A stretch of DNA of 32,000 nt from Pirellula staleyi DSM 6068 (GTDB lineage: Bacteria; Planctomycetota; Planctomycetia; Pirellulales; Pirellulaceae), in assembly GCA_000025185.1 (NCBI GenBank), contig CP001848.1, forward strand, positions 5,940,001 to 5,972,000, written 5' to 3'. The position numbers and the translations under genes were made by a program. The first letter of the stretch is position 1. Each line of letters begins with the position of its first letter. This document shows, one piece after another, positions 7,457 through 24,431 of the stretch. Below the pieces are notes generated by a model. That model searched no databases, was not told the origin of the DNA, and was given only the letters and a program-made list of their open reading frames with translations.

Positions 7457-7546
7457 CAAATTAACCTCAATATATTGTGAGTTATTACAACACTATTTCC
7501 ATCGAATTAGCACCGACTTATTCATGTTTTATTCACAAATTACTGA

Positions 7547-9730: not shown

Positions 9731-9873
9731 GGCAGGAACTCACAAAAACGACGGTCGAAGTTCAGGCAAATAGTGCTGCAGTAGGAAAGCTGAAAAAGGT
9801 GAAAAGTGCGATGCGGCACCGTGAGTTGGCAGGCCTCTTCCAGAGAGAAGATGCCCCGCGTCGCTCTGATCTT

Positions 9874-10476: not shown

Positions 10477-10511
10477 CGGGTGCTCCTGATGTTGGGCGTC
10501 CGAGTCGCCAC

Positions 10512-10666
10512 GGGCTAGGAAAACAGCAAATCGCGGTCGACCGCAGCAGCCAAGTTGCCTTGGAGAATCCCCGCTATCGTTGGGCTAGGAACGATCGTAG
10601 CAGTTATTCCGCAAAAATTCCCCCCGCGTGCGGCTTGTGGTCTCATTCTGCCACCAAGTGCGGCTT
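10512..10666. promoter_or_regulatory. Divergent sigma / response-regulator control region with repeated motifs
   Basis: GGGCTAGGAA occurs at 10512-10521 and again at 10582-10591. A perfect 12-bp palindrome, GCGGTCGACCGC, lies at 10533-10544. GTGCGGCTT occurs at 10628-10636 and 10658-10666. All lie in the 227-bp gap between the divergent starts at 10476 and 10704. Their function is inferred only. Confidence 0.35.
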
Positions 10667-10703
10667 AGTACTAACCTACTCTTTCGCAAGGGGCAGGACT
10701 TTT

Positions 10704-11393: not shown

Positions 11394-11962
11394 CTGTGCG
11401 GGCTGAGCGAGTTTTCATAACGGGGCGATCGGCCCCTCTACGCAGCGCTCACAGCAAGCGATGTGCTATCGCGCGCTACAAGCGTGCTAGACGCGGCTTT
11501 GTGAAGTTTCCGCAAACAAATCGCCCCACAGTTGGCCGATTCGTTAAAGAGACATTGAAGCCAGCGGCCATCATGAATACGATAAATAAATAGAAGTGAC
11601 GTGCGCCGAAGTTGGTCCATCGTCTAGAGATTTGCGGAGTCGTAGTGGCGGAGACTTGCTCGCTAAGCAGGTCGGCACTACTAGATTCGCACTTGTAACG
11701 ATTGCTTGGCACACTCCTGGTGGCCGATGCCCGACCTGCGGAACACCGTAGTTTTGAGTTTTCGGCGATCATCCGTGTAGCACAAGTTCGCCATGCTTAG
11801 CAGCACGCGAGCCAGCTTCATTCGCATCGATCATTCGCGTTGCCATCCTGCTGTGGGGATGGCCCAGCCGCGAGAATTGCAAGTTGCCTGCTTTCGAATT
11901 CGGAACCGAGAAGAACCGAAACTCAAAGCTGGTGGGGAGGTTTCCTGGCAGGAAATACCGAC

Positions 11963-12292
11963 ATGTACCAGCCTGGTGATCGCGTGGTTTATATGACCAC
12001 GAAACACAGCTCGCACCCAACGCCTCGCGCTTGCGCCGTTCAGCCTGAACCGCATGGCGAAGGCTATACGTACGACGTGAAAAAGTTTTGGCTAGTGCAG
12101 GATGTCGGCGCCGATGGCAACTTGGTGGTGGTGACACGTCGCGGAAAAACACGCACGGTTGCTGCCACGGATTCTCGACTTCGCGCCGCCAATTGGTGGG
12201 AGCGGATGTTCCTTGGGCATCGTTTTCCTCAGCCCGGTTCAGGCTCCGCCCCAGAGAAAGATGAGAAGTCGGAAAAGCTGATGGCGGGCTAG
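11963..12292 (+). CDS. Hypothetical small protein (109 aa)
   Basis: The ORF-track frame is 11840-12292. I favour ATG 11963 (MYQPGDRVVYMTTKHS...), preceded by gggaGGtttcctGGcAGGaaataccgac. I recognise no family, and coding status is moderately uncertain. Confidence 0.45.
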   Translation: MYQPGDRVVYMTTKHSSHPTPRACAVQPEPHGEGYTYDVKKFWLVQDVGADGNLVVVTRRGKTRTVAATDSRLRAANWWERMFLGHRFPQPGSGSAPEKDEKSEKLMAG

Positions 12293-12406
12293 TTTGATCG
12301 CCCCTCGGTCGTCACACTAGTCGCGTATCGCACACAACTCTGGCTGGGCAATTATCTTTCCCAAGCCATTGCTTGTAGCGACCTTCCGCTATTTCCCTCG
12401 CGCTCA

Positions 12407-12886
12407 GTGACTCTCTCCGCCATGCACAAACTTCTGACCGGTCAAACGGGCGACGTTGCCGGCGATTACGCCATCGTCGTTTCGCGCTATAACGATTCGA
12501 TTACGTTCAAGCTCCGCGACGCCGCGATCTCTACCCTCACCGCTGCTGGCGTATCGAGTTTTTCGATCACCGTTTGCGAAGTCCCCGGCGCTTGGGAAAT
12601 TCCTCTCATCGCCAAGAAACTCGCTGCTACCAAACGCTATGCCGCGATTCTCACCCTGGGTGCCGTCATTAAGGGGGAGACCACGCACGACGAGCATATT
12701 AACCGCCAGGTGAGCCTCAGCTTGGGGCAACTGAGCTTGGAGTTTGGGATCCCCATTTTGTTTGGTGTGCTGACGACCAACACGCTCGAGCAAGCGATTC
12801 ATCGCGCGGGTGGCAACGTCGGCAACAAAGGGGAAGAGTGCGCCACAGCCGCCCTCGAGATGGTACGACTGGTTCGCAAACTCTAA
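12407..12886 (+). CDS. ribH: 6,7-dimethyl-8-ribityllumazine synthase
   Basis: Lumazine synthase motifs: AIVVSRYN, EVPGAWEIPL, YAAILTLGAVIKGETTHDEHI, IPILFGVLTT, RAGGNVGNKGEECA. The start is either GTG 12407 or ATG 12422 (MHKLL...). Confidence 0.9.
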   Translation: MTLSAMHKLLTGQTGDVAGDYAIVVSRYNDSITFKLRDAAISTLTAAGVSSFSITVCEVPGAWEIPLIAKKLAATKRYAAILTLGAVIKGETTHDEHINRQVSLSLGQLSLEFGIPILFGVLTTNTLEQAIHRAGGNVGNKGEECATAALEMVRLVRKL

Positions 12887-13041
12887 TCAACCGATTCGCT
12901 ATATTTCTCGGCAAGACGTAACATCTGCGTCACTTCTCTTGCATTTCGTAGCGACTACGGGTCACAATTCCCTCCGCCTGCTCATCGAGCTTTTTGCGAT
13001 GAGCCGATCTCGCCTATTTTCAACGTGCGACGGAGGTTCTT

Positions 13042-13569
13042 GTGAAGCGAACTCTTGCGGCCTGGTTGGTTGTCGTTCTTGCCGGCGTGCTGTGTGTGTC
13101 CACGGCTATCGCCGACTTGGCTCCTCCTCCACCGCCTGACAAGCCAGAAATGATCACCGAGTTTTCGGTTCTTATCGAAGTGGCGTATCAGGATCTCGAT
13201 CGCGCTGAACCGGGGCTGAAGGCCAAGCTGATGCTTCCCGAAGGTGCGTTTCCTGGCGCTGCTCCAGAAGCCGTTCCCATGACATCGCCACCCGCCGCTC
13301 CGTTTGGTTTTTCTCCGTCGGGCTTTGGCACGGTGATGGCAGGCATTGCTCTCACCTTGGCCATTGCTTCAGCAGGCTTGCTGATGCGCGGCAATCGACG
13401 TCTGCGGACAGCATCAGCCGCGTTGCTGGGGCTTGCGCTTGTGCTGGGTGGCTACTCGATGGCCGTTGCCGATATCCCTCCATTTAGCCGCCCTCGCCCT
13501 GCTCCACCTCACTTGGTGATTCAGGTCCTGAAGGATCTGAAGCAAGCGAAGTTGATCATCGACAAATAG
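13042..13569 (+). CDS. Hypothetical exported/membrane protein
   Basis: GTG start. Signal peptide: MKRTLAAWLVVVLAGVLCVSTAIA. A PPPPP tract follows. Two C-terminal hydrophobic helices are present (GTVMAGIALTLAIASAGLLM, ALLGLALVLGGYSMAV). No family recognised. Confidence 0.6.
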   Translation: MKRTLAAWLVVVLAGVLCVSTAIADLAPPPPPDKPEMITEFSVLIEVAYQDLDRAEPGLKAKLMLPEGAFPGAAPEAVPMTSPPAAPFGFSPSGFGTVMAGIALTLAIASAGLLMRGNRRLRTASAALLGLALVLGGYSMAVADIPPFSRPRPAPPHLVIQVLKDLKQAKLIIDK

Positions 13570-13597
13570 TCGAACAGCGCATTTCATCGAGAGCCCG

Positions 13598-14644
13598 ATG
13601 TCGACCACGCTCATCGAATGTGAAACGTCCATCGCGCCGAGCGCTGTAAGCTCGGTGCCGGGGACTTCGCGCATGTTGCTGGCACTTGCTGTGGGACTGA
13701 TTCTCGTTTCGGCAACGCTTGCGGCCGCTTTGCCGATCGGTTTTTCGATCATCACCGTCTTTCTCTTTGCTGGGCCACACAACTGGCTCGAAGCACGGTA
13801 CATGCTCTCGCAGATGCCCGCCCGCTGGGGGAAGCTGCGAGTCTATTTTCTGACCGGGATTCTCGGCGCGATGCTCCTGACGGGCCTCGCCGCGTCGATG
13901 CCTCTGGTGGGCATTTCGCTCGATTTCTCGCCGCAGTCGTATAGCTACCTCATCGCCGCGTGGAACTCGCTGCTGCTGCTCTGGATCCTGACACTCTCGC
14001 AGCTGCGGGCGGCGCAAAACCCTCGTCGCAATTGGCAGGTAGCCTATCCCCTCACGTTCGCGTTAATTGCCGTTAACTGGCTCTATCCGACAACGATGGG
14101 AATGCTGCTGGTTTATCTCCATCCGCTAGTGGCCCTGGCCTTCCTCGATCGCGAACTCGCACGCCGCGATCGCCTCGAGCAGACCAACTTGCAAACACCG
14201 TATCGCCAAGCGCTACTGCTGTTGCCGCTTGCGATTTTTGGCATTGTCGTCGCACTCTGGAATCAGCCGAACTTGCCGGGAGACGATTTACTCTCGCAAG
14301 CGATCACACATCACGCGGGTGAATCGGCATTTGGCAACGTCTCGACGCACATGCTCGTTGCCTTGCACACGTTTCTCGAGATGCTGCACTACGGTGTGTG
14401 GGTCGTCGCGATTCCACTGCTTTCCATTCGACGCTGGCCATGGCAAATCGATACGGTTCCACTCACACGACGTTCACCGATTTGGCGACAAGCGATCCTC
14501 GGAGTCGTGGCGCTCGGTGCGATCGTGATGCTCGTACTGTGGGGTTCCTTCCTGGCCGACTATCCACTCACGCGCAATCTCTACTTCACCGTTGCGATGC
14601 TGCACGTGCTCGCCGAAGTTCCATTCCTTCTGCGACTTCTCTAA
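13598..14644 (+). CDS. Hypothetical polytopic membrane protein with intramembrane His/Glu motifs
   Basis: 348-aa ORF with about 8 or more hydrophobic segments. Recurrent His/Glu motifs: GPHNWLEARY, YLHPLVA, THHAGE, LHTFLEMLHYGVW, MLHVLAEVPF. No family assigned confidently. Confidence 0.65.
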   Translation: MSTTLIECETSIAPSAVSSVPGTSRMLLALAVGLILVSATLAAALPIGFSIITVFLFAGPHNWLEARYMLSQMPARWGKLRVYFLTGILGAMLLTGLAASMPLVGISLDFSPQSYSYLIAAWNSLLLLWILTLSQLRAAQNPRRNWQVAYPLTFALIAVNWLYPTTMGMLLVYLHPLVALAFLDRELARRDRLEQTNLQTPYRQALLLLPLAIFGIVVALWNQPNLPGDDLLSQAITHHAGESAFGNVSTHMLVALHTFLEMLHYGVWVVAIPLLSIRRWPWQIDTVPLTRRSPIWRQAILGVVALGAIVMLVLWGSFLADYPLTRNLYFTVAMLHVLAEVPFLLRLL

Positions 14645-14683
14645 ATCGCGCCGACATGCCTCCACCCTCGAGCAGCCGACACT

Positions 14684-15073
14684 GTGGCACCCACGAACGC
14701 TGAACTTTGGAGCTTTCTCGTCGGCGGTTATTTCCTCACCGTCCTGATCGAAACTCCGATTCTTTTTTTCGGTCTGTCGAGACGTCACTCCGCTTTCACC
14801 AAATTGCTGGCAGGCTTTTGGCTCACTGCCTGTACCTACCCCATGGTGATCTTGGTGCTACCCAATTTGCTGTGGCGTCCGTTTGGCTACTGGCCGTACA
14901 TCGCTATCGCTGAAACGTTCGCGCCTCTGGCCGAGTGTCTGCTGTTTCACTTTTTTGCGTCACGAATCGCAAGCGACCAGCGCACGACTTTTCAAGATTC
15001 GCTGGCAATCACTGGCGCTAATTTAACGTCGTTTTTGCTCGGGCTTGCCCTCGCAGCACTCGGACAATCGTGA
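14684..15073 (+). CDS. Hypothetical small membrane protein (129 aa)
   Basis: GTG start 40 nt after the previous gene. About 4 hydrophobic segments. Glu-containing motifs LIETPILFFG and AIAETFAPLAECLLFHFF. Same strand and close spacing as the two preceding genes. Confidence 0.55.
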   Translation: MAPTNAELWSFLVGGYFLTVLIETPILFFGLSRRHSAFTKLLAGFWLTACTYPMVILVLPNLLWRPFGYWPYIAIAETFAPLAECLLFHFFASRIASDQRTTFQDSLAITGANLTSFLLGLALAALGQS

Positions 15074-15107: not shown

Positions 15108-17951
15108 CTAACTGCGAGGCTCGGGACGCCAGCGCCACATCCAAATTAATCGCCGCGCAACGGTGGGGAGCAGCAGATAGCCGATCATCAAGACCCAAAA
15201 GATTCGTGCCGGGGTTAGCATGGCAGGCATAAGATGCAGCGATGTCAGCAGCGCCGCAGCGGTCGGCATACCAACGACAAAGCGACGCTGGCGCGCAAGC
15301 CAGTCGATCACTGGGCTGGGATGTTTTTCTCGGCGTTTCGAGCGCGGCGCAAGCGCGAGCCACATAGCTCCCAGGGCTACGATCAGTAGTGCTAGGGCAA
15401 CTGGCAGAGGTATGCTTTTACGCAGCCCCCCGAGGAGCGCCGGCCAGCGCAGGTCGACTCCTCCATGCCCCAGTTTCAGTAGCAAGAGCATACCGATCGA
15501 CGCAGCAGCCAGCGCGAGCATGATGGCGTAGCTGTATTGAAAAAAGATCCGCTCACTCGTGGATTTCCACTCGCCTGTGCGATGCAGCATCGCGATTTTG
15601 ATCACAGCGGCGAATGCTGCGGCACAAGCAACGTTTTCAAGTATGGCCCACTCGCTCAACCGATAGCCAAACTGCCCCATCCGCAGCATCACCATATCTC
15701 CCATCGCCATCACCCGATCGAGAGCGATGATGGGAATCAGCAGCGTCAGGACTTGGCGATAGAGACCGCCGACTCCCAGAACTAAGGCCCAGCGCGCGTA
15801 GGCAGAATTATTCCGCGCCAGGATGTTCACTCCCCAGTAGTCGTGAAAACGCTTGCAGCGATGGAGCAACTGGCCACGCGCAGTGACCACGACTTCATTG
15901 ACACGAGGCAACCACGTGAGCAGACCGAGCGACGCGACAAACAGCACGCCGCCGAGCATCAGCCCACTTCCCCAGCGAGGTTCATAGGTCAGCCGCACTT
16001 CGGTCGTCCCGACTGGCATGTCGAACTGAATTCGCCCCAGAGGATCTTCTTTGCACAAAACTCGCACCCCATTGCAGCGCACTACGGAGCGTTTTAAGTA
16101 CAGAAAGTTCAGAGTCCCTTGCGAGGCTCGCGAAGCTGGCGCACATGTCGCCTCGAAGCTGCTGAGCTTCTGTCGACACGCGAACGCCTTGGAATCGAGT
16201 TCGGCTGTCCAGATCAGACCGCGAGGATCTTTTACCTCGATCACCCGCAGCATGCTGCGTGATGTGGGCTGCGGCGTTTGCTCGCGATGGAGCAGTTCGT
16301 CGAGAGTTCCCCAGTGATAGATCAGCACTGCAGCGACACCATACTCGCGGAGCATCCGATCATTCCGCAGGTTGGTGGCGATCCGCTGCGAGGCTGGCCA
16401 TGTGGAGACCAGTGGGTCATAACCATCGACCGAGGGAATCTGATAGTAGCTCGCGAAGTTGTGCCCCAGCGAAGTGGAGTAATCCTCGGCGGGATAGCGC
16501 GCTGGCATCTCTGGCTTTACACGCAGCAGCGATGGAGGTGGAAACATCGCGGCAATATCAGGTGCGAGCGCTGGGTAGTTGTTACCGCTGAACGTGCAAA
16601 ACGAAGGTTTGGGAAACGATGCATCGTGCAGCGTCAGGCCGATCGAGGCGAGGCTGAAAACGATCGCAACCAGATTCCACCAGCGACTTGCTCCAGCTAT
16701 GGACTGCAGCACCATCGCCCCCCACAGCAGTGTGAAAAAGGCAACAAATGGCAGGAATTTAATCGGATAGCTGAACTTCGACAGAATCGGCAACACTTGG
16801 TGGAGTCCCCAAAGTGGTGTCGCAGGTCCGAGCGCGAGTAGCAGAAAAACGACGAGCCCCCACCACACCGCCGAGTGGAGCAGTTTGCACTGGCTCCGGC
16901 GCACAACCACTTCGACCAGACTGGCAAGGGCGAGCCAAGCAAACACACCTCCGAAGAAATACATCGATCCGAAGTAGACACCTGCCTCTGTGGGTTCTCG
17001 CCCATCAACGTGCGAGGAAAACTGAAGTGGCATCGGCCACAAGATCGAGTTAAGCGCCTCGTATATGCCAGTCCCCAGTCCACCCTGGCGATTGATTCCC
17101 GAAGTCCCTTCGAGTTGCGTTAGCAGCAGTGGCGCGGCGATAGCAACTCCTAGGGTAAGCGCTACAATGCGACAGATCGTCAGCTTTACGGAACCTCGGT
17201 CCGCAGAGCATTCGCGTGCGTAGTCCAGCAAGGTGGCGCCAAGCACACCCAGCATGACGTAGAACCACATCTGCGCGTTGCCTGCATGGAACAGAGCGCC
17301 GAGCGAAACGCCGAGCAGGAGTGTTGCGAGTCGTTGGTACTTGGTGCTGGAGAGCCACGCGTAACAGCCAGCGGCAAGGGGCCCCCAGAGATAGAGCGGC
17401 GTCATGTAGTACCACGATCGCCCCGCGATGAGTGCATAGCCACTGAGCGCAAGCGAGACCCCGAGCGCGACGCGCAGCCAGGGATGCAGCCCAACCCGCG
17501 CGCCGCACCACCACATCGCCAAGTACCCACCCAGCAAATGGCCGATGCAAAAAATCTCGATGGTATACCGCTCATCTCCCAGGCATTTGGCTAGTGCGTA
17601 AGACGCGTAGGTGGGGGGATAAGTGAGAGCATAGGTCCCACGGTCAGCGAGCGGAGCGCCGAGGAATTGATACGGGTTCCAGTCCGGAAATTCTCCCGCC
17701 TCGAGGCAGCGACAGCCGTGCAGCATCGCAGGAAAGAACTGCGTGTAGTTATCGTCTTGCAAAAAAAACAGTGGCGAGTAATGCTCGATCCCCAGGAGCA
17801 TCGCCGCCACAACGATTAAGCCAACAGCGCACGAAAACAGGCCGCGACGATGATCGCGCTGCCAAGGCTCACTTGCTCCGGCATCGAGCCAGAGTGCTAG
17901 ACGTGCCAAACTCCCTTGAGCTTGGATTAGTACGTTTCGAAGCAATACCAC
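15108..17951 (-). CDS. Large polytopic membrane protein, putative GT-C-fold (YfhO-like) polyprenyl-phosphate-sugar-dependent glycosyltransferase
   Basis: 947-aa ORF with a GTG start 7 nt after the AraD-like stop. An N-terminal region of about 430 aa has many TM helices. A soluble domain of about 200 aa follows, then a second multi-TM region of about 300 aa. The architecture and its neighbours (GT2 and a GtrA-like module) suggest a GT-C enzyme. I did not recognise a diagnostic motif, so the function is inferred. Confidence 0.45.
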   Translation of the reverse strand: MVLLRNVLIQAQGSLARLALWLDAGASEPWQRDHRRGLFSCAVGLIVVAAMLLGIEHYSPLFFLQDDNYTQFFPAMLHGCRCLEAGEFPDWNPYQFLGAPLADRGTYALTYPPTYASYALAKCLGDERYTIEIFCIGHLLGGYLAMWWCGARVGLHPWLRVALGVSLALSGYALIAGRSWYYMTPLYLWGPLAAGCYAWLSSTKYQRLATLLLGVSLGALFHAGNAQMWFYVMLGVLGATLLDYARECSADRGSVKLTICRIVALTLGVAIAAPLLLTQLEGTSGINRQGGLGTGIYEALNSILWPMPLQFSSHVDGREPTEAGVYFGSMYFFGGVFAWLALASLVEVVVRRSQCKLLHSAVWWGLVVFLLLALGPATPLWGLHQVLPILSKFSYPIKFLPFVAFFTLLWGAMVLQSIAGASRWWNLVAIVFSLASIGLTLHDASFPKPSFCTFSGNNYPALAPDIAAMFPPPSLLRVKPEMPARYPAEDYSTSLGHNFASYYQIPSVDGYDPLVSTWPASQRIATNLRNDRMLREYGVAAVLIYHWGTLDELLHREQTPQPTSRSMLRVIEVKDPRGLIWTAELDSKAFACRQKLSSFEATCAPASRASQGTLNFLYLKRSVVRCNGVRVLCKEDPLGRIQFDMPVGTTEVRLTYEPRWGSGLMLGGVLFVASLGLLTWLPRVNEVVVTARGQLLHRCKRFHDYWGVNILARNNSAYARWALVLGVGGLYRQVLTLLIPIIALDRVMAMGDMVMLRMGQFGYRLSEWAILENVACAAAFAAVIKIAMLHRTGEWKSTSERIFFQYSYAIMLALAAASIGMLLLLKLGHGGVDLRWPALLGGLRKSIPLPVALALLIVALGAMWLALAPRSKRREKHPSPVIDWLARQRRFVVGMPTAAALLTSLHLMPAMLTPARIFWVLMIGYLLLPTVARRLIWMWRWRPEPRS

Positions 17952-17958
17952 CGGTGAC

Positions 17959-18690
17959 TTACTCCTCCACCGATGCCATCGTAGGAAGATTCATCGCGGC
18001 AGATCCTACTGTAGGTTCGTTTCGCACCTGTCCATATCGATGCTGGAACCGATCGTTCCACATGGCCACTTGCGTTTGCGAGAGCGACTGAACAGGGCCA
18101 AGCTGCATTGCTAAGTGGACCGTCCGAGCTGCTTGCTCGACTTGCTCCGCGTGATAGATCGCCTTCGCAACACTGCTTCCCCAGCAAAAGACACCATGCT
18201 TTGCCAAGAGAACCGCAGGCGCGACGCTGATCGTCGCCAGGATCGCGCGCCCGATATGATCGGCGACATTATCGGCATAAGGCGCACATGGAATCTCCCC
18301 TCCAAAAACATCGGCGATCCCAGTACAGCAAACAGGAATCGCGCGCTCCTGAATCGCAAACGCCGTGGCGTAAGTGCTGTGCGTATGCACGACACCCCCG
18401 ATCTCGGGCAGGTTTCGATAAAGGAATAAGTGATGGGGCAAATCGACACTGGGACGCAAATCGCCATCGACTACTGCGCCGGTTGCCAAGTCGACTTCGA
18501 CCAAATCCTCGGGTTGAAGCAGATCGTAATCGATCCCCGACGGCTTGATCACAACGCGACCAGCAGCGCGATCGATGCCACTAACGTTCCCCGCATGCCC
18601 TACCACCAGCCCCGCAGATGGCAAACGTTTACAGGCAGCGCATACCGCCACTCGCAAGCGCGACAGACGTTCGTTTCGCTTCGATTCCAT
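17959..18690 (-). CDS. L-ribulose-5-phosphate 4-epimerase family (class II aldolase/adducin fold, AraD/SgbE/UlaF-like)
   Basis: It aligns by eye along its whole length with E. coli AraD: GNVSGIDR, VVIKPSGIDY, RPSVDLPHHLFLY, IGGVVHTHSTYAT, GGEIPC, AKHGVFCWG, and a C-terminal RYGQ. ATG 18690 (MESKRNERL...) fits AraD N-terminal spacing. The alternative TTG 18735 would lie 3 nt from the upstream stop. Confidence 0.85.
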   Translation of the reverse strand: MESKRNERLSRLRVAVCAACKRLPSAGLVVGHAGNVSGIDRAAGRVVIKPSGIDYDLLQPEDLVEVDLATGAVVDGDLRPSVDLPHHLFLYRNLPEIGGVVHTHSTYATAFAIQERAIPVCCTGIADVFGGEIPCAPYADNVADHIGRAILATISVAPAVLLAKHGVFCWGSSVAKAIYHAEQVEQAARTVHLAMQLGPVQSLSQTQVAMWNDRFQHRYGQVRNEPTVGSAAMNLPTMASVEE

Positions 18691-18738
18691 GGCCGTTCCA
18701 CCCTCGCGCTGCCAGCGCAGCTCATCAGGTTGCAAACA

Positions 18739-19431
18739 TCAAATGCTTCCACGATCAAAACTTTTTTCACTGCCAATGCGAGCAACTTCGCTCGCGCTCC
18801 ACTCGCCTGCATTACAGCCAGCCTTCTGCCACAAATCGATCCGTTTGGTGCAAATGGCATCGACACGTATTCCGCGAAGCTGCTGGGCAAACTCGGCAAT
18901 CCATGCCACCGGATGCCCTTGTAGTTCTGGCGAAACGAGGCAAATCTTGAACTTGCCAGCGAGTCGCGCCGCTAGTGGTGCGTCGAGAATCAGTCGCGAA
19001 AAACAATCGATCCAGACCCAGTCGAGACTTCCCGCCAGGGCGAGTGCCCCTTCCACCGGTTCGATCTCACTCACGCGAGCAGCGATACGATGCTCGCCGC
19101 GCTGCGTGAGTTGTCGCACCATCGGCAGCGAGCAATCGAGAAAGAAATAATCGCGCACCGTGCCAGCTCGGGCGATTGCCTCGAGCACGCGCGACTCAAT
19201 CCGTTCACTCTTGATATTCAGGACCATCAGCCCGTGCTGATAATGTGCCAGGTAATCTTCAAAACGCTCGCCCCCCACAAACGGATCGTGCGCTAGGATG
19301 AGTTGATCACCGTGATCGCGCAGATCGAGTTCCACACCGAACTCCCGCGGCGTTGCGCGAAGCTGCTCCACCGTGTTCACACGATGAGCAATCCACGCAA
19401 CCCGATCGAAGCTGCTGATTGGATAATTCAT
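18739..19431 (-). CDS. PLC-like phosphodiesterase TIM-barrel protein (glycerophosphodiester phosphodiesterase-like)
   Basis: Start placed at ATG 19431 (MNYPISSFDRVAWIAHRVNT...), which overlaps the upstream stop as ATGA. The motifs IAHR..N, GVELDLR and LILAHDPF match the H-R/E-x-D/H-D pattern of the GDPD family. The 94 ORF-track codons upstream of it overlap the preceding gene and are rejected. Confidence 0.5.
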   Translation of the reverse strand: MNYPISSFDRVAWIAHRVNTVEQLRATPREFGVELDLRDHGDQLILAHDPFVGGERFEDYLAHYQHGLMVLNIKSERIESRVLEAIARAGTVRDYFFLDCSLPMVRQLTQRGEHRIAARVSEIEPVEGALALAGSLDWVWIDCFSRLILDAPLAARLAGKFKICLVSPELQGHPVAWIAEFAQQLRGIRVDAICTKRIDLWQKAGCNAGEWSASEVARIGSEKSFDRGSI

Positions 19432-20228
19432 CGTGCCGTTCTCCCCGCTGCTTCCAGTGGCAACTGCTCCCAAGCAGCAAGCTCCTCGGGAGTTCCCCAG
19501 CCCAGATAGCGATCGACCTCGAAAACTTCGACGTGTTTTCCTTGCTCGACGAGCAAGTTGGGGACGATGTCGAGATAGAACTCGCCACGGGCCCTGATCT
19601 GCCGTGCGAACATGGTGTCGATTGCGCTGAACATCAACTGCGCCGTGCGGAAGTAGAAGCATCCGCTCACCACATGATCGTTCAGCAACTGCTCCGAGAT
19701 CGGCTGTTTGCACGACACGCGGAGGACGCGACGAGCATTCACTTCAACCCAGCCAAACTGCTGAGGACGTGCAACGACCCGAGGATCACCTCGATAGGTC
19801 CACACCAGCGCGTCGACGTCGCGCGCGGCAGCTTCCGACCAAGCTGCTGGCGAGTACCGATGTGAATTATCGCAGGCACCGACGAGCACCGGGAGCGCGG
19901 GATCGAGCAGCGGCTCGGCAAGTTTTACCGTCGCAGCCTGCCCCGCCGTTAAGCCTTCGACGAAGAGCCATTCAGCGTGGGGCAGGAACTCCGAAACTCG
20001 TGCGCGAAGCTGATGCTTACGATCATGCTCGGCACGGGCCACCAGAACAAGTCGACTCGCCTCGGGCATATCGGCGAGCGCGCGAACGATCATCGGTATC
20101 CCATCAACCGGTATCAATGGCTTGGGAAGTTCGAAGCCTACGTCGGCGAATCGGCTCCCCTCCCCCGCCATCGGCACAACGATCTGGAGCGGCGCTGCGG
20201 CACCGAGTTCCGCTTCGTAAGGCTTCAT
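19428..20228 (-). CDS. Sugar-phosphate nucleotidyltransferase (NTP_transferase-type)
   Basis: The N-terminal signature IVVPMAGEGSRFADVGFELPKPLIPVDGIPMIV matches (G)xGxR...PKPL.p. Both ends overlap their neighbours as ATGA (20225-20228 and 19428-19431). Confidence 0.75.
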   Translation of the reverse strand: MKPYEAELGAAAPLQIVVPMAGEGSRFADVGFELPKPLIPVDGIPMIVRALADMPEASRLVLVARAEHDRKHQLRARVSEFLPHAEWLFVEGLTAGQAATVKLAEPLLDPALPVLVGACDNSHRYSPAAWSEAAARDVDALVWTYRGDPRVVARPQQFGWVEVNARRVLRVSCKQPISEQLLNDHVVSGCFYFRTAQLMFSAIDTMFARQIRARGEFYLDIVPNLLVEQGKHVEVFEVDRYLGWGTPEELAAWEQLPLEAAGRTAR

Positions 20229-21751
20229 CGGGACGCTCCTACCGGCGGCCGATACGCCCGAGAGAGCCCCCAGCGATCGCGTGCAAAGAGCCGCGGCTCC
20301 AGTTCTTGCGAGAGATTAACAAACGATCCGTAACGCGGTGTCACCATCATCTCGATCGGATAGAGGTGCGGGATCTCGAGACGAAAAGCATCGGCTCGCG
20401 CGATTCCTAAGTGCCGCGCGAGGAGGACTCGGAGCACCCCTTGATGCGTAGCGATGACACCGTGCGAAATACTCGATTCCGTTAGTTCCGTAACGAATGC
20501 ATCGAGACGCGTTTCGAGATCGGCTGTGCAATCACCACCAGGAAAGGCAGGGTCTTCACCACGCGTCCAGGCATCGAAGAGTTCCGGAAACTGCTGCCGA
20601 GTGGCATCGACCGTTAGACCTTCGCACGCGCCGTAGTTGAGTTCGCGAAGACGCTCATCGGTAGAAATGAACGCAGGTGATTCAGGATAAGTGCGCCGCA
20701 GCAGTTCGATCGACTCGGTAGCGCGTCGCAGGGGGGAACTAATCCAAGTCACATCGCTCCACGGAACTTGTTTCCAAGCGACAGGTGGTGAGGGCTGCTG
20801 CTCGTCGATTGAGAGATCCGTACTACCGACGAAACGTCGCGGGCCGCGAGAAAGTGGCGTGGCTGCATGCCGAAACCACCAGAAACTCCGAGCTTTTTGC
20901 TGAAATTCTTCTGCGAACTGCTGCTGAAAGGTCTGCAGGAACAGCTCAAGCAGCGACTGACACTGCTCGGGGAGCGCTGCGAAGTCGCGGATCGTTTTAC
21001 GACGCGTGAGTTCGAGGAAAAGAGGCTCAAGCAGTTCTCGATGCGCGGGCATTTCGCGAAAGTATCGCTCGGAAATTTCCTGGGCCGTAAGTGCCAGATT
21101 TTGTCGCGCGATGAGCTTCAGGAAGTTCAGCATCAGGAACTTCATGACGTGATAGCCAAACTCGAGACGGTCGCGCATCGTCATCGGCTGTCGACACGGA
21201 ACTTCCAAGAGACGCTGGTCGACAAATTCAATGCGTCGAAACGAAAGCTCCCCCGCCGCGAGATCCGCCAGATAGTCCCCTGCTCCACGTCGCGCCTGAG
21301 CCAGGTGTCGAGGCTGCAGCAGTGGGCATGGAAAGATCTCGGCCAGTGAGTTCTTGAACCAGCGACGGGAACGCTGCCAGTCGAAACAGGTGAGGGGACT
21401 TGCGAGAACATGGTCGCGATGCGAATCAGGCGAATACATCATCAGATGCAGCACCGCAGTCCCCGGCGCATCGAGCTTGCGTGGCCCGAGCGTATCGTTG
21501 ACCACTAGCGAAAGTCCGTGCTGCTCGACAACATCAGCTAACGCGCGAGAAAAATGTTCGCGGCACTTCTGGAAAGTCGTCGTCGTGAGTGGCTCGACAA
21601 CCACCACAACATCGATATCGGCAATCGCATCGAGAGAGCGAGCGCTATCAAAACTTCCCGTGATCGTGGCGGAAACAACCTCCTCGAGATCTCCTGCGAC
21701 TTGTTCCATCGCCTGCTCGATCTCTCGCTTGAGAAACTCGCTGGCGCTCAT
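20225..21751 (-). CDS. Fusion protein: Pol-beta-type nucleotidyltransferase fold + helical domain + histidine phosphatase (phosphoglycerate-mutase-like) domain
   Basis: N-terminus: ITGSFDSARSLDAIADIDVVVVV, a GS...DxD minimal NTase signature. C-terminal third: WWFRHAATP (RHG-type motif), SSPLRRATES, ELNYGACEGL, IATHQGVLRVLLA. The start ATG overlaps the upstream TGA (21748-21751). Confidence 0.65.
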   Translation of the reverse strand: MSASEFLKREIEQAMEQVAGDLEEVVSATITGSFDSARSLDAIADIDVVVVVEPLTTTTFQKCREHFSRALADVVEQHGLSLVVNDTLGPRKLDAPGTAVLHLMMYSPDSHRDHVLASPLTCFDWQRSRRWFKNSLAEIFPCPLLQPRHLAQARRGAGDYLADLAAGELSFRRIEFVDQRLLEVPCRQPMTMRDRLEFGYHVMKFLMLNFLKLIARQNLALTAQEISERYFREMPAHRELLEPLFLELTRRKTIRDFAALPEQCQSLLELFLQTFQQQFAEEFQQKARSFWWFRHAATPLSRGPRRFVGSTDLSIDEQQPSPPVAWKQVPWSDVTWISSPLRRATESIELLRRTYPESPAFISTDERLRELNYGACEGLTVDATRQQFPELFDAWTRGEDPAFPGGDCTADLETRLDAFVTELTESSISHGVIATHQGVLRVLLARHLGIARADAFRLEIPHLYPIEMMVTPRYGSFVNLSQELEPRLFARDRWGLSRAYRPPVGASR

Positions 21752-22872
21752 GTTTCGGCGATCCCTTCCATCAGCATCAGCGCTGCACGGAGCGGATGCT
21801 GTGCGCTGGTGACCGCCGAACTCGAGACCAGAATTCGCGATGGAATGCGCGGCAACGTAGCGAGCGAAACTCCCCCATCAAACATCGTCTGAAAGTGGTA
21901 GCGATTTTCGAGATTCACCAGCTCGGTAGCGATCGCAATCGCCTCTTCGCGAATCGGCTGCCCCGATTGTCCCGGTCGCTCGATACCGAGGACCATGACG
22001 TAGTCGACCATCGGTAGAAAGCGGAGCAAATCGGAGAATCTCATCGCGCCATGCCACACCACCCCGACACGGAGCGATAGCTCTCGCGCTCGAGCAATCA
22101 CGTCGAGTGGATCGTCTTCTCCATCGGGATGAAACAGCACGGTGTCGACTTGCGGCCCCAACTCCTCAGTCCAGCGCAGAGGGGTGCGCGACATGATATG
22201 CAGCACCAGCGGCTGCCATGTCCAGTGCTCGCGCGCGGCAGCAATGCGGCTGCTGTCGATCGGCGCTGCGTTGGGATCGAGCGTGCGATCGATTAGGTCG
22301 AAATGGACATGGTCACAGGCATCGCGAAGGTGCTCGAGTTCGTGCGGGCCAGGTCGATCGCTATTGAGATAGATCGCGAGCCCGAGATTGCGACTCAAGC
22401 GGTGAAAAGTCCAGCGGCGATGGACAATATAAATCACTCCGCAAAGGGCCCCGGAAGCGACCAATCGGCCAATCGAATAGGGCATCACCTCGAACAAGCG
22501 GAGGGCGTAGGCGAGTCCAAGATTGAGCGACAAGCTGACAAGCGAGACGATTCCGTAGACCAGAATGGCGCGCAGCTGACGCGAGGGGGTCACTTGGAAA
22601 TTGAACTGCACGTTAACGACTGCGGCGATCAGCATGCCGACAACGAAGGCGAGACTAGCCCGCATCACCCAGGGCCAGTTTTGCGGGAGTAAGGACTCGA
22701 TCAGCACCGCTTCGAGCACCAGCGAAGCGAGTCCCACGATTAAGAACACACCCAGGTGACGATAGCGCCAGCTGATCATCGTCGCGAATCGGCGCAAGTT
22801 GGTTCGCCAGGGAATGGCGGGCGAGAGTGGACGTCGCATCGCGGACGACAATGTTCCACCGGATTGTTGCAT
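21748..22872 (-). CDS. Fusion protein: GtrA-like four-helix membrane module + ribulose-phosphate 3-epimerase-like TIM barrel
   Basis: The N-terminal ~160 aa have four TM helices ending in IVHRRWTFHR, a GtrA-family hallmark. The C-terminal part aligns by eye with E. coli Rpe: HVHFDLID (cf. VHFDVMD), LVLHIMSRTP (cf. DVHLMV), VDYVMVLGIERPGQSGQPI (cf. LDVILLMSVNPGFGGQSF), TMFDGGVS (cf. EVDGGV). The metal/catalytic His, Asp, His and Asp positions appear retained. Confidence 0.7.
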   Translation of the reverse strand: MQQSGGTLSSAMRRPLSPAIPWRTNLRRFATMISWRYRHLGVFLIVGLASLVLEAVLIESLLPQNWPWVMRASLAFVVGMLIAAVVNVQFNFQVTPSRQLRAILVYGIVSLVSLSLNLGLAYALRLFEVMPYSIGRLVASGALCGVIYIVHRRWTFHRLSRNLGLAIYLNSDRPGPHELEHLRDACDHVHFDLIDRTLDPNAAPIDSSRIAAAREHWTWQPLVLHIMSRTPLRWTEELGPQVDTVLFHPDGEDDPLDVIARARELSLRVGVVWHGAMRFSDLLRFLPMVDYVMVLGIERPGQSGQPIREEAIAIATELVNLENRYHFQTMFDGGVSLATLPRIPSRILVSSSAVTSAQHPLRAALMLMEGIAET

Positions 22873-22929
22873 GGAAGAACCCGCGCATGCTGAGGCCTAA
22901 TAGCCGCCTGGAGTTGCGGCGACCAAAGG

Positions 22930-23586
22930 CTACATTGCCCCCGGAATCGCCAAGGCCTGACTCTCAGCCACTGCCTCGAGTTCTAGACGAATTATGTGAA
23001 GACTCGTCAAAGAGAAGTCGTTCGTTATGGAGAACTCTTGCACCATGGGCCACGCGATCGATGCTGCGGAGGGTGGCAGCGATGCAATCGTAAGATGCGG
23101 AATCCAGTCGTCACCCGTGTAAGGAAAGCCCCACGTTTCGATCGATTGTTGGCGGAGGGGCGAGAGCCGGTCCCAAGCTGCTGTGTAAAGTTCGAGTGAA
23201 GCTTGGCGATCGCGCTGACCGGCCACTCCTTCTAGCAGCGTGGTCTGCAAATGGCGGAGCGTTTGTGTGCTTGAAGCGTTTAGCGTGCAGACGATCGTCG
23301 ATTCCCCAGTGAGCGGATCGGCTTCAAAGAGATGCCAGCCAGCCGTTTGTAGTCGCGGAAACGTTGTTTGTGCGAGCCACTGTGAGAGGCAATGTGTCAT
23401 CTCGCTGCGCTGGCGAAAACAGCTTTTGGTCAGCGTGATGTGGGGGGGATGATCGAGATAACGCTGCGGTCCGACCTTGCGCGCGACAGCCTGTTTGACA
23501 CTCTCGATCTGCTCGGCAAGTCGCTCGTCGGGCAGAAGCAAAAGGGCATAGCAGTCGGCCGTCATGGAGGGTTCTGCGCTAGTCAA
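22930..23586 (-). CDS. 2H phosphoesterase superfamily protein (LigT / cyclic phosphodiesterase-like)
   Basis: 218-aa ORF with the two diagnostic H-x-T-x motifs in the expected halves: HPPHITLT and IPHLTIAS. Confidence 0.65.
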   Translation of the reverse strand: MTSAEPSMTADCYALLLLPDERLAEQIESVKQAVARKVGPQRYLDHPPHITLTKSCFRQRSEMTHCLSQWLAQTTFPRLQTAGWHLFEADPLTGESTIVCTLNASSTQTLRHLQTTLLEGVAGQRDRQASLELYTAAWDRLSPLRQQSIETWGFPYTGDDWIPHLTIASLPPSAASIAWPMVQEFSITNDFSLTSLHIIRLELEAVAESQALAIPGAM

Positions 23587-23693
23587 GATCGAGGATCCCT
23601 CCCTTACACTAGGTAAAGTTTACTGCGTGAAGCAGAGGCAAACGCTTGATTAAGTATCAATTCTGTCACAACTGCAAAGGAATCAGGCACCCC

Positions 23694-24431
23694 CTAGTTA
23701 CCCAGGAGTCCGAGTCTCGCCATGTAGCGGATGCTGCGGGCGATTGTACGCCAGCGCGAGAAGAGAGTCGCCGACCAGTTGCTGCTGCCATAAGGTCGCG
23801 GAGGGAACTTCACTTCGATTTCTTCGATTTTCCAGCCGGCAGCCAGTGCGCGATAGAGAACATAGACATCGAAATTAAAATCTTTCGCGGGGCGCGTAAG
23901 CTGCGCGAGAAGTTCACGATGAAAGACTTTGGGCTGCGCGTTGATTTCGCGGAGATTTCGTCGCAGCAGCACAAACGCAAACAGTTCCATCCCGCGACTC
24001 ACGATCCGCTCGCGAAAATGACGCCCCACGCGGCGTCCTTTCACGATGGTGCGACGGGGATTAGCGCTCCGCTGCAGCTGTTCAAACGCTCGCAGCACAT
24101 CGGCCGGATCGCACTGCAAATCGGCATGCGACCAGGCAATGAACTCCCCTTCCGCTGCGGAAATTCCGGCAAAAATGCCGTGCCCATAACCTTGATTCAC
24201 TTCCACGAGAACCGATCGCGCGAACGGATAGCGTGGCAGCAGTTCGTCGAGCACTTGCTGCGAGTTATCGCGCGAGCCGTTGTTCACCAAGATCAGTTCA
24301 AGCGTTTGCTGGCGCGCAAGTGGCGCGAAACGTTCCAGAATCGCCGGAATGCCGCGCGCTTCGTTGTAGCACGGTAGCACGATGCTGAGAGGAATCGGGC
24401 GGCCGATATCCAAGGCAGGAGCAGAGGCCAT
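23694..24431 (-). CDS. Family-2 glycosyltransferase, polyprenyl-phosphate glycosyltransferase-like (GtrB/CsbB/ArnC/DPM1-like)
   Basis: LSIVLPCYNEARGIPAIL, ELILVNNGSRDNS, NQGYGHGIFAGISAAEGEFIAWSHADLQCDP (DxD-type motif). Its small size (245 aa) is typical of the soluble or membrane-associated GT2 core. Confidence 0.75.
   Translation of the reverse strand: MASAPALDIGRPIPLSIVLPCYNEARGIPAILERFAPLARQQTLELILVNNGSRDNSQQVLDELLPRYPFARSVLVEVNQGYGHGIFAGISAAEGEFIAWSHADLQCDPADVLRAFEQLQRSANPRRTIVKGRRVGRHFRERIVSRGMELFAFVLLRRNLREINAQPKVFHRELLAQLTRPAKDFNFDVYVLYRALAAGWKIEEIEVKFPPRPYGSSNWSATLFSRWRTIARSIRYMARLGLLGN

Follow-up and report, generated by a model that had tools for sequence, protein, structure and literature searches.

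What do the enzymes of a compact eight-gene locus in Pirellula staleyi DSM 6068 make, and where is the product delivered? The window, a stretch of 32,000 nucleotides, contains eight tightly packed minus-strand ORFs, Psta_4567 to Psta_4574 (gene products ADB19209-ADB19216), numbered here from g8 (Psta_4567) to g1 (Psta_4574). As in the original prediction, made from the sequence, the genes are co-directional with gaps of at most 107 nt, and all ORFs lie at their predicted positions.

Gene order and protein families

From g1 to g8 the intergenic gaps are 107, 57, -4, -4, -4, 48 (or 3) and 7 nt, with 4-nt ATGA-type overlaps at three junctions. The g6 ORF spans 18739-19713, its true start being the ATG at 19431, which overlaps the g5 stop codon; the g7 ORF spans 17959-18735 and probably starts at 18690. 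The eight predicted family assignments were all supported by profile searches, AF2/Foldseek comparisons or homologue matches. Profile HMMs matched the GT2, 2H, GtrA, RPE, His_Phos_1, nucleotidyltransferase and Aldolase_II domains directly, whereas for the g4 NTase, the g6 GDPD and the g8 GT-C assignments the window proteins themselves gave no match and support came from orthologues, structure and homologues, respectively, and is only indirect for g8.

The product of g1 (23694-24431; PF00535, 5.6e-21) is a GT2 protein with a polyprenyl-phosphate glycosyltransferase catalytic domain that aligns as a whole to ArnC (9bhc, residues 14-220) and to P. furiosus DPMS (5mlz, residues 13-236). Its subfamily motif W-[ST]-H-A-D-[LM]-Q-T-D-P is invariant, with HAD in place of DAD in all 65 of the 65 family members. 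A scan of g1 for TM segments found none. The polypeptide of P. furiosus DPMS includes its own GtrA-like TM domain (Pfam name GtrA_DPMS_TM), and a domain of this type is encoded by g3 (21748-22872), whose product joins a GtrA/DPMS-type 4-TM domain (aa ~43-156; PF04138, 2.7e-11) to an RPE-like TIM barrel (aa ~165-370; PF00834, 2.4e-14). The TM-less g1 probably works together with this TM domain.

Aligned to residues 13-215 of human RPE, the g3 barrel retains the HxD, H and D metal/catalytic residues, which do not vary among 16 homologues. Such fusions form a rare family nearly confined to Planctomycetota. For an early soluble step one would not expect the RPE to carry a membrane domain. The second predicted epimerase, g7 (17959-18690; Aldolase_II, 1.4e-51), has an AraD-like class II aldolase fold, and its best NCBIfam match is L-ribulose-5-P 4-epimerase with 241 bits (cut-off 251), as compared to 117 bits for FucA. 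It is 39% identical to what we take to be the E. coli AraD sequence, and 14 orthologues show no variation at the equivalents of N28, K42, D76, H95, H97, D120 and H171. Judged by family and catalytic residues, the g3 barrel is RPE-like and g7 AraD-like, and from this we infer pentulose substrates for both.

Although annotated as 'phosphoglycerate mutase' in the record, g4 (20225-21751) encodes a fusion protein in which a Pol-beta-type NTase and helical part (aa 1-~290) precedes a histidine phosphatase (aa ~290-490; His_Phos_1, 4e-25). A Pfam search of the window protein gave no match over the N-terminal NTase domain, but this domain is recognised through its orthologues, with PF01909 matched by 29 of 31, Polbeta by 14 and Adenyl_transf by 6. 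The best NCBIfam match of g4 is alpha-ribazole phosphatase, and the AF2 model (pLDDT 86.5) has CobC and GpgP-type phosphatases as top Foldseek matches; residues G32, S33, D45, D47, R294, H295, E370 and H436 are invariant. The neighbouring g5 (19428-20228; NTP_transf_3, 1e-7; NTP_transferase, 3e-6) encodes a sugar-phosphate nucleotidyltransferase (NT) of GlmU/RmlA/IspD-like fold that matches the NDP-sugar pyrophosphorylase 4evw over its full length.

Two phosphodiesterase-type enzymes accompany these proteins. The 2H phosphoesterase g2 (22930-23586; PF13563, 6.7e-19), a predicted cyclic phosphodiesterase, also weakly matches DUF1045 and Phn-operon families, and neither of its HxT motifs (H49/T51, H164/T166) varies among 20 orthologues. 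A Pfam search of g6 (18739-19431) gave no match. Its AlphaFold (AF2) model (pLDDT 91.8) is a GDPD/PI-PLC-like TIM barrel of a metal-dependent phosphodiesterase, with glycerophosphodiester phosphodiesterases as best Foldseek PDB matches (3ks6, E 7e-7, TM 0.62), and the sequence keeps the H-R...E-x-D...H-D motif with H16, R17, E34, D36 and H48 conserved. The modelled structure confirms the prediction of a GDPD-fold phosphodiesterase. Its role might be simple hydrolysis, for proofreading or recycling. The g6 family comprises 1297 representatives at 50% identity, some fused to GT2, NT or GT61.

The last gene, g8 (15108-17951), encodes a polytopic membrane protein of 947 aa with about 13 or more hydrophobic segments. 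The protein itself matched no Pfam model, GT-C models included, but YfhO PF09586 is matched by 9 of 32 g8 homologues, and source annotations name some of them YfhO. F63, D66 and D67, just past TM1, are invariant in the homologues (DD motif). On these grounds g8 is a candidate distant YfhO-family (GT-C-like) periplasmic glycosyltransferase.

Conservation of seven genes and a sister module

Of 38 independent genome loci, about 25 contain genes for GT2, 2H, GtrA::RPE, NTase::HisPhos, NT, GDPD and AraD together, with the order shuffled. The genomes with this set are almost all Planctomycetota and cover Pirellulales, Gemmatales and Phycisphaerae. Since the synteny is conserved despite the shuffling, chance juxtaposition is excluded. 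The neighbourhood survey found no recurrent extra function near the seven genes, so the set looks self-sufficient. The catalytic residues of the RPE domain, AraD, HisPhos, 2H, GDPD and NTase are intact and conserved. A large polytopic membrane protein adjoins the set in nearly every locus; a g8 homologue, however, lies next to a g3 homologue in just four distinct loci (the L002 group, L013, L014 and L017), and the other loci hold polytopic proteins unrelated to g8. The expected co-occurrence was thus borne out with strong synteny, but the conserved unit is the other seven genes, and g8 is a variable, interchangeable partner.

In other organisms the g1, g5 and g6 types also occur fused to each other as GT2::GDPD, GDPD::NT::NT and NT::NT::GDPD, the g5-homologous domains forming tandem pairs in proteins that carry the g6 domain. 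Far beyond Planctomycetes, too, GT2, NT and GDPD form a functional triad. A widespread sister module is made up of NT-NT, GtrA, GT2, GDPD, membrane::PRK, HAD and Aldolase_II; across 43 loci, each of these components occurs in 28-39. Its kinase domain scores 190.7 bits as phosphoribulokinase vs 92 as uridine kinase, and its HAD protein best matches haloarchaeal ribulose-1,5-bisphosphate 5-phosphatase (167 bits; next family 102). Such a pair of PRK and RuBP-5-phosphatase shifts the phosphate of ribulose from C5 to C1 (PMC9700705). As the PRK-like and RuBP-5-phosphatase-like enzymes are non-homologous to those of the operon, both sets independently point to ketopentose phosphates. The sister module is found on E. 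coli plasmids, and in Azospirillum it adjoins wzm/wzt, gmd and GT1 O-antigen genes, supporting a role in envelope glycan synthesis. The O-antigen locus of the E. coli strain with the sister module is O35-type, not O95 or O97, giving no tie to a known xylulose-containing antigen.

A proposed route to a lipid-linked pentulose

These data suggest that the operon probably couples pentulose-phosphate enzymes to lipid-carrier glycosylation, decorating the envelope with an unusual five-carbon keto-sugar by an undescribed route. We consider it very likely that the genes are dedicated to making a lipid-linked sugar donor for glycosylation in the periplasm. The fuller reading, in which pentulose 5-phosphates from the pentose phosphate pathway are converted to a polyprenyl-phosphate five-carbon sugar that is transferred onto an envelope glycan by a periplasmic GT-C-type enzyme, is somewhat favoured. 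The original prediction of a dedicated pentose or pentulose donor feeding GT2, GtrA and GT-C is still the best reading, backed by the PRK-like and RuBP-5-phosphatase-like enzymes of the sister module. A ketopentofuranose is more likely than a generic pentose, and the balance tips slightly towards it as the sugar. Some bacterial glycans contain ketopentofuranose residues, for which the literature names no donor.

The specific chemistry is our inference. The g3 RPE-like domain and g7 would set the stereochemistry by interconverting D-Ru5P, D-Xu5P and L-Ru5P, possibly also L-Xu5P. The g4 histidine phosphatase, acting as 5-phosphatase or 5->1 mutase, may then free O5 so that the ketose closes to the furanose, and the Pol-beta NTase domain of g4 could place an activated phosphate on the primary O1, giving NMP- or NDP-1-O-pentulose. 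With the neighbouring anomeric 2-OH as nucleophile, g6 would produce pentulofuranose 1,2-cyclic phosphate, which g2 would open to the anomeric 2-phosphate. This opening is modelled on 2H cyclic phosphodiesterases, which convert ADP-ribose 1'',2''-cyclic phosphate to the 1''-phosphate. The sister-module loci lack a 2H enzyme, so ring opening there would need another catalyst. Overall, the phosphate would move to the anomeric oxygen via the cyclic phosphate, g5 would yield NDP-pentulofuranose, and g1, docked on the g3 TM domain, would transfer the sugar from this putative donor to polyprenyl phosphate. By analogy, the lipid-linked sugar would be flipped by the GtrA domain and then transferred extracytoplasmically by g8 or a different GT-C enzyme. 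The cyclic-phosphate 'phosphate walk' in this detail is tentative. We know of no precedent for nucleotide-diphospho-ketopentoses or for GT2s using ketose donors, the known ketose donors being CMP-linked.

A rather unlikely alternative is a DPA-like polyprenyl-phosphate aldopentofuranose (Araf, Ribf, Xylf or Lyxf) made without PRPP: pentulose phosphate would be converted to a pentofuranose 1-phosphate, g5 would form the NDP-pentofuranose, g1 would load the lipid, and 2H and GDPD would merely salvage 1,2-cyclic phosphates from the decay of labile NDP-furanoses. Lipid-linked aldopentofuranoses used by GT-C enzymes are well established (mycobacterial DPA; Citrobacter, PMC11127046), the best g1 matches include the pentose transferase ArnC, and among HisPhos enzymes are mutases as well as CobC, a ribosyl-5'-phosphate phosphatase. 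Yet no ketol isomerase of the SIS, RpiA/B, MtnA or R15P-isomerase type was found in the cluster or recurrently nearby, and the second nucleotidyltransferase would be left without a role. Being strictly conserved in both modules and found in fusions with GT2 and NT, GDPD seems to be a core enzyme rather than a repair function.

The two phosphodiesterase-type enzymes would also fit a pathway in which the pentulose enzymes and g5 make CDP-5-pentulose and a pentulose- or pentitol-phosphate is joined by a phosphodiester to a glycan or lipid-linked sugar, with GT2, GtrA and GT-C handling an ordinary hexose. AbpA of S. pneumoniae makes CDP-xylulose and TarI makes CDP-ribitol; pentulose 5-phosphates are direct substrates of AbpA-type cytidylyltransferases, and g5-type domains weakly match IspD/TarI-like families. 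We regard this as improbable, as the conserved set has neither a reductase nor a CDP-alcohol, LicD or TagF-type phosphotransferase, the g4 NTase domain matches MNT/ANT-type families instead of LicD, and the PRK and RuBP-5-phosphatase pair of the sister module strips the very 5-phosphate on which CDP-5-pentulose depends. Least probable is a cytoplasmic small molecule, e.g. a glycosyl-pentulose compatible solute made by synthase and phosphatase as in glucosylglycerate synthesis, or a chance juxtaposition of pentose catabolism and glycosylation. Planctomycetes make unusual glycoside solutes, the g4 HisPhos model resembles glucosyl-3-phosphoglycerate phosphatase, and the N-terminal part of g1 weakly matches GpgS. 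However, g1 aligns to lipid-phosphate GT2s across its whole catalytic domain, GtrA domains and large polytopic proteins constantly accompany the set, the sister module sits within an O-antigen locus, and the synteny in about 25 loci excludes chance.

Comparison with known glycosylation systems

A literature search revealed no characterised equivalent of the operon, in line with the original prediction. Its logic resembles that of Gtr (GtrA/GtrB/GtrC) and CsbB/GtcA/YfhO, where a polyprenyl-phosphate GT2 is likewise encoded with a GtrA-family domain and a GT-C/YfhO-like polytopic transferase, for cytoplasmic loading, flipping and periplasmic transfer. In contrast to Gtr systems, the GT2 of the operon lacks the TM anchor of GtrB and has HAD where Gtr-type enzymes have DAD, GtrA is fused to an RPE-like barrel, and the unit has five further cytoplasmic enzymes predicted to make the donor; Gtr systems draw on UDP-Glc or UDP-GlcNAc from housekeeping metabolism.

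The mycobacterial DPA pathway (Rv3806c, Rv3807c, DprE1/E2, Rv3789, Emb/Aft) and PpgS/Rv3632/Rv3779 are similar in that a phosphatase frees the pentose O5, a GtrA-family protein partners the synthase and the final transferases are GT-C enzymes; there, a TM-less GT2 is aided by the small GtrA-like Rv3632. The mycobacterial donor, however, derives from PRPP, that of the operon presumably from pentulose phosphate and NTP, the loading and epimerisation enzymes belong to different families, and the mycobacterial pathways have no phosphodiesterases. The PRPP-dependent Citrobacter youngae O1/O2 system (PPPRS, MATE flippase, GT136, SDR epimerase; Kelly et al. 2024, PMC11127046) likewise attaches a five-carbon furanose outside the cytoplasm, using a lipid-phosphate donor, and has auxiliary epimerases to diversify the sugar. 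This system is limited to aldopentoses and relies on a UbiA-type synthase, a MATE flippase and an SDR epimerase whose substrate is the sugar already linked to the lipid. Instead of UbiA, MATE and SDR the operon has GT2, GtrA, two nucleotidyltransferases, GDPD and 2H, and its sugar-phosphate epimerases would act before lipid loading.

In CMP-Kdo and CMP-sialic acid synthesis a 2-keto sugar is similarly dephosphorylated and then nucleotide-activated at the tertiary anomeric hydroxyl by a GT-A-like NT fold, but there the free sugar receives CMP in one direct step and the GT families are dedicated ones; these routes involve no cyclic phosphate, GDPD, 2H or polyprenyl-phosphate GT2. The RuBP 5-phosphatase and Ru1P aldolase of the haloarchaeal non-carboxylating pentose bisphosphate pathway (PMC9700705) are most similar to the sister-module HAD and class II aldolase-family proteins, which with the PRK-like kinase would yield ribulose 1-phosphate. 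The haloarchaeal pathway is catabolic and ends in DHAP and glycolaldehyde, whereas the sister-module enzymes sit inside a glycosylation module, and the planctomycete operon uses the non-homologous HisPhos, NTase, RPE and AraD enzymes.

Domain assignments in the operon

ORF calling identified eight genes between positions 15108 and 24431, all on the minus strand and separated, from g1 to g8, by gaps of 107, 57, -4, -4, -4, 48 and 7 nt, in agreement with the co-directional arrangement and the maximum gap of 107 nt described in the original prediction. An exact look-up matched them to Psta_4567 to Psta_4574 (ADB19209-ADB19216). The start codon of g6, the GDPD-like gene of 230 amino acids, is the ATG at 19431, in agreement with the database entry, and the ORF listed for it opens within g5; the AraD-like gene g7 most likely starts at 18690 (243 amino acids). 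A simple promoter and terminator scan of the operon gave no signal above that of shuffled sequence. The operon is flanked by unrelated planctomycete genes, namely a divergently transcribed gene for a DUF1559 protein and genes for a Gfo/Idh/MocA oxidoreductase, for kinases and for a sigma factor. Two neighbouring minus-strand genes in the window (7547-9730 and 5273-7459) carry DJ-1/PfpI domains in unusual fusions, one with a Ser/Thr protein kinase containing an anti-sigma-type zinc finger, the other with cadherin/Big_9 and RTX repeats in addition to a planctomycete extracellular motif.

The glycosyltransferase g1 matches PF00535 (5.6e-21) and its entire catalytic domain aligns to ArnC, DPMS of P. 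furiosus, PgfS and AglJ, supporting its designation as a polyprenyl-phosphate glycosyltransferase-like GT2. It belongs to the polyprenyl-phosphate GT2 subfamily, with the caveats that no transmembrane segments, and hence no membrane anchor, were found in g1 and that HAD replaces DAD. Together with 64 homologues, g1 (23694-24431) shares an invariant W-[ST]-H-A-D-[LM]-Q-T-D-P where ArnC and DPMS have D-A-D-L-Q, and [DN]-N-G-S at the position of the ArnC/DPMS D-D-G/D-S. This family thus has its own alteration of the nucleotide- or metal-binding site, and the exchanges of DAD for HAD and of D-D-G-S for N-N-G-S may reflect an unusual donor.

g3 combines, as predicted, a GtrA domain (amino acids 43-156, PF04138, 2.7e-11) with the four helices of the GtrA family and an RPE domain (PF00834, 2.4e-14) within one protein. 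The RPE domain aligns to residues 13-215 of human RPE, retaining HFDLID, LHIM and FDGGV, and the H-x-D, H and D that bind metal and take part in catalysis do not vary among 16 homologues of the fusion family. With its full (β/α)8 barrel, these residues and the phosphate-binding loops it qualifies as a ribulose-phosphate 3-epimerase family member, and as its score of 48 bits is far below the NCBIfam equivalog cut-off of 213 it has to be regarded as a divergent one. The fusion itself is rare, with 16 clusters among 5.8 billion proteins. For g7 the NCBIfam model NF005123 gave 241 bits (cut-off 251) versus 117 bits for FucA. The residues which we take to be equivalent to AraD N28, K42, D76, H95, H97, D120 and H171 are invariant in 14 orthologues. 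g7 has the class II aldolase fold, the three Zn-binding His, the phosphate-binding N/K/S and the Asp acid/base of L-ribulose-5-phosphate 4-epimerases, and the AraD-like assignment stands as a predicted activity.

The product of g4 shows 100% identity to the protein annotated as 'phosphoglycerate mutase' in P. staleyi. Its C-terminal domain matches PF00300 (4e-25), finds CobC, GpgP and dPGM as structural matches, and has R294, H295, R343, E370 and H436 invariant; with the RHG motif, the second His, the Arg residues and the acid Glu it falls into branch 1 of the histidine phosphatases. Fold and residues are compatible with a phosphatase as well as a mutase, between which they do not distinguish. 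For the N-terminal 290 residues the window protein itself gave only a 0.055 match among nucleotidyltransferase models (DNA_pol_B_palm), and a PDB sequence search with this domain returned nothing useful; 29 of 31 orthologues match PF01909, the best with 4e-6. G32, S33, D45 and D47 are invariant and the modelled secondary structure is consistent with a Pol-β-type fold, so that the G-S and D-x-D motifs and the NTP_transf_2 match place g4, through its orthologues, in the Pol-β-type nucleotidyltransferase superfamily. Both halves of the proposed NTase-fold::histidine phosphatase fusion were thus recovered. The assignment of g5 as a sugar-phosphate nucleotidyltransferase is supported by direct Pfam and NCBIfam matches.

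The 2H phosphoesterase g2 matches PF13563 (6.7e-19), and 20 orthologues all retain the two H-x-T/S motifs of the superfamily, H49-x-T51 and H164-x-T166. For g6, named PI-PLC/GDPD by NCBI and UniProt, four orthologues were searched and gave no Pfam match, to the GDPD model or any other, even at E <= 10. The structure model of g6 (pLDDT 91.8) is most similar to glycerophosphodiester phosphodiesterases, with 3ks6/3ks5 and 3mz2 at Foldseek ranks 1-6 and 8ghi at rank 13, and has their GDPD-type TIM barrel. The H-R/E-x-D/H-D constellation (H16, R17, E34, D36, H48) is conserved in 47 sequences, so that model and catalytic residues agree with a GDPD-like phosphodiesterase where Pfam is silent. PDB sequence searches with g6 and g2 yielded nothing useful, and a homologue search with a joined g4 and g6 query returned g4 relatives only. 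The g6 family comprises 1297 representatives at 50% identity, some of them fused to g1-type GT2, tandem g5-type nucleotidyltransferases or GT61.

Profile searches, which supported the RPE, AraD and GtrA assignments, gave no Pfam match for g8 itself, the 947-amino acid polytopic protein named PTPS-related membrane protein in UniProt; there was no PDB sequence match, nor a useful one with the g8 family profile. It has more than 130 homologues, and YfhO was matched by 9 of the 32 scanned (best 1.5e-6). In GT-C enzymes catalytic acidic residues are located in the loop after TM1, and an invariant DD motif of the g8 family lies in this loop. As judged from these sequence features, g8 is a probable YfhO/GT-C-like transferase. 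Its C-terminal ~290 amino acids (15108-15970) contain about six extra hydrophobic segments to which homologues do not align (query coverage 65-70%), and the only match of this extension is weak and MerT/CopZ-like.

Conservation of the gene set in Planctomycetota

Scanning one genome per species for the GtrA::RPE fusion gene yielded 38 loci, nearly all from Planctomycetota (Pirellulales, Gemmatales including Limnoglobus roseus, and Phycisphaerae), with a few MAGs labelled otherwise. About 25 of these loci contain homologues of g1, g2, g4, g5 and g6 next to the fusion gene, and about 22 contain one of g7; the gene set occurs in at least four orders, indicating functional coupling rather than inherited adjacency. 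Chance adjacency was rejected as the set is kept in so many loci and in several arrangements; a catabolic role of RPE and AraD was rejected as well. The expected synteny of all eight genes holds for g1 to g7 and not for g8, a homologue of which adjoins the cluster in no more than four distinct loci. In most of the others its place is taken by one of several unrelated polytopic proteins of 550-750 amino acids. Since these proteins show neither a Pfam match nor an hhalign link to the g8 family, they cannot be assigned as GT-C.

A small free-standing GtrA gene is located between g5 and g6 in most related loci and is missing in P. staleyi. A Pfam census of 115 neighbouring ORFs revealed no further recurrent function, and specifically no recurrent isomerase, kinase or reductase, the sole recurrent extra being occasional methyltransferases. 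The empty census and the variable polytopic protein suggest that the seven genes g1 to g7 form a unit that appears to be self-sufficient in donor synthesis and loading, the final transferase being exchangeable.

Several loci show individual features. Methyltransferases are present in four related loci, and one Pirellulales version of the cluster (L008, 6542-8014) codes for a SAM-methyltransferase joined to a GtrA domain; these findings hint that the lipid-linked sugar might be O-methylated. In one Planctomycete lineage (L002, 10001-13913; also L003 and L004) the GtrA::RPE gene has a g8 homologue as its only neighbour from the set, next to sulfotransferase genes; the other five genes must be located elsewhere or be missing, indicating that the pair of fusion and GT-C-like protein can occur by itself. 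A polytopic family of 560-690 amino acids with an invariant G-W-D-G-Q-F-Y-Y adjoins the cluster in nine genomes (L021, 5741-9902; L046, 5198-7030; and 7 others) and is duplicated in one of them. Neither Pfam nor a profile comparison with the g8 family gave a match for it, and it may represent a new GT-C-like family.

A sister module and the proposed donor pathway

Among 80 metagenomic loci around g6 relatives we identified a second and highly conserved gene set, the sister module, in genomes of 24-67% G+C. It consists of an NT-NT tandem, a small GtrA, a g1-type GT2, a g6-type GDPD, a PRK-family kinase with a fused polytopic membrane domain, a HAD hydrolase and a class II aldolase-family protein, each present in 28-39 of the 43 loci counted. 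The kinase domain scores 190.7 bits with the phosphoribulokinase subfamily versus 92 with uridine kinase, and the HAD hydrolase matches the haloarchaeal ribulose-1,5-bisphosphate 5-phosphatase far better than any other family. This phosphatase has been characterised together with a class II Ru1P aldolase (PMC9700705). The sister-module loci gave no match to HMMs built for g2, for the RPE domain or for either half of g4, indicating that the two modules have GT2, NT, GDPD, GtrA and an enzyme of the class II aldolase fold in common, the remainder being non-homologous.

Like the Gtr and CsbB/GtcA/YfhO three-component systems, the P. staleyi operon comprises a GT2, a GtrA and a probable GT-C; unlike them it also encodes a pathway to the donor. 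Conceptually nearest are the Citrobacter aldopentofuranose system described in 2024 (PMC11127046) and the mycobacterial DPA route, which proceed from PRPP via a UbiA-type synthase, with a MATE flippase or Rv3789 and with epimerases acting on the lipid-linked sugar, all families absent from the operon. As neither UbiA nor MATE matches were obtained in the eight operon proteins or their recurrent neighbours, membership in this PRPP/UbiA pentofuranose system (PPPRS/MATE/GT136) was rejected. Full-text literature searches returned no description of either module, in line with the original view that no characterised pathway of this composition is known. The operon is probably a variant of the three-component glycosylation type with an uncharacterised and probably chemically novel donor branch.

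Any explanation has to account for the constant companions of the lipid-phosphate GT2, namely a pair of pentulose-phosphate-type enzymes, a phosphatase, a phosphodiesterase and two nucleotidyltransferases, the last two having different folds in Planctomycetes and being tandem paralogues elsewhere. The prediction of a pentose- or pentulose-type donor feeding the GT2/GtrA/GT-C set is strengthened and sharpened by the sister module, which also contains pentulose-phosphate enzymes. We consider it very likely that the set is dedicated to supplying periplasmic glycosylation with a lipid-linked donor derived from pentulose phosphate, and we slightly favour a ketopentofuranose as the donor sugar.

A 2-ketopentose 5-phosphate neither closes to a furanose nor has an anomeric phosphate available for activation. 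Only tentatively, and from family chemistry, do we propose that the 2-ketopentose might be activated at its tertiary anomeric oxygen via a 1,2-cyclic phosphate and an NDP-pentulofuranose, a scheme that is doubtful as it stands and employs every conserved enzyme of both modules. In the sister module PRK and then the RuBP 5-phosphatase would shift the phosphate from C5 to C1, freeing O5 and leaving the phosphate beside the anomeric 2-OH. The 1-phosphate would be nucleotide-activated by the first NT, in Planctomycetes by the histidine phosphatase-fused Pol-β NTase g4, and the GDPD/PI-PLC-like g6 would cyclise the phosphate onto O2. The resulting 1,2-cyclic phosphate would be opened to the anomeric phosphate, in Planctomycetes by the 2H enzyme g2; 2H cyclic phosphodiesterases yield ADP-ribose 1''-phosphate. 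From the anomeric phosphate the conserved NT (g5) would form NDP-pentulofuranose, the HAD-motif GT2 (g1) would move the pentulofuranose to polyprenyl phosphate, and RPE and AraD would decide which pentulose is formed. The scheme does not explain why the RPE barrel and GtrA are joined in one protein, how the ring is opened in the sister module, which is devoid of a 2H enzyme, or why the GT2 subfamily carries invariant HAD and N-N-G-S substitutions.

Xylulose, as a ketopentofuranose residue, is a constituent of O antigens (E. coli O95/O97, Yersinia enterocolitica O:10), of the capsule of Campylobacter jejuni RM1221 and of glycans from marine bacteria, and the literature records neither an activated donor nor biosynthetic genes for it (PMC7685785, PMC11380512, PMC8707391). 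A conserved, self-contained set joining pentulose-phosphate enzymes to lipid-carrier glycosylation is a candidate for this missing ketopentofuranose pathway, in two non-homologous versions, one of them on IS26-flanked E. coli plasmids. If true, it would explain how the xylulofuranose and ribulofuranose residues of bacterial glycans are made, and the large GDPD-like family (~1300 clusters at 50% identity) as well as a distinct GT2 subfamily would receive their first function. Periplasmic glycan decoration would gain a third mode of donor supply beside UDP-hexose/GtrB and PRPP/UbiA, and a first access to the envelope glycan chemistry of Planctomycetota would be opened.

Genomic settings of the sister module

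In two E. coli strains among 5426 genomes the sister module is located on 33-kb plasmids between IS26 copies. On the plasmid of a human stool isolate (L127, NZ_CP145712.1, 4986-17325) two IS26 flank eight genes, NT-NT, GtrA, GT2, GDPD, membrane::PRK, HAD, class II aldolase and a hypothetical protein of 586 amino acids, with the cassette itself at 6022-14984. The second copy, on a plasmid from a bullfrog isolate, is ~100% identical over the full 8,963-bp query. The E. coli version looks like a mobile glycan-modifying cassette; a phage-borne sister module was not found. The idea that the E. coli host is a xylulose serogroup was not supported, its O-antigen locus being of the O35 type.

The module is also present on a Hirschia plasmid and on a plasmid of Azospirillum brasilense, where it lies directly beside the O-antigen genes wzm/wzt, gmd and GT1. 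The genes adjoining the module there (L128, plasmid p5, NZ_CP032350.1, 3365-18579), two of them GT1 and the others gmd and the ABC-transporter pair wzm/wzt, mark an ABC-transporter-type O-antigen locus whose polymer is probably a D-rhamnan, and the arrangement suggests that the sister module provides a side-branch decoration of the adjoining polymer.
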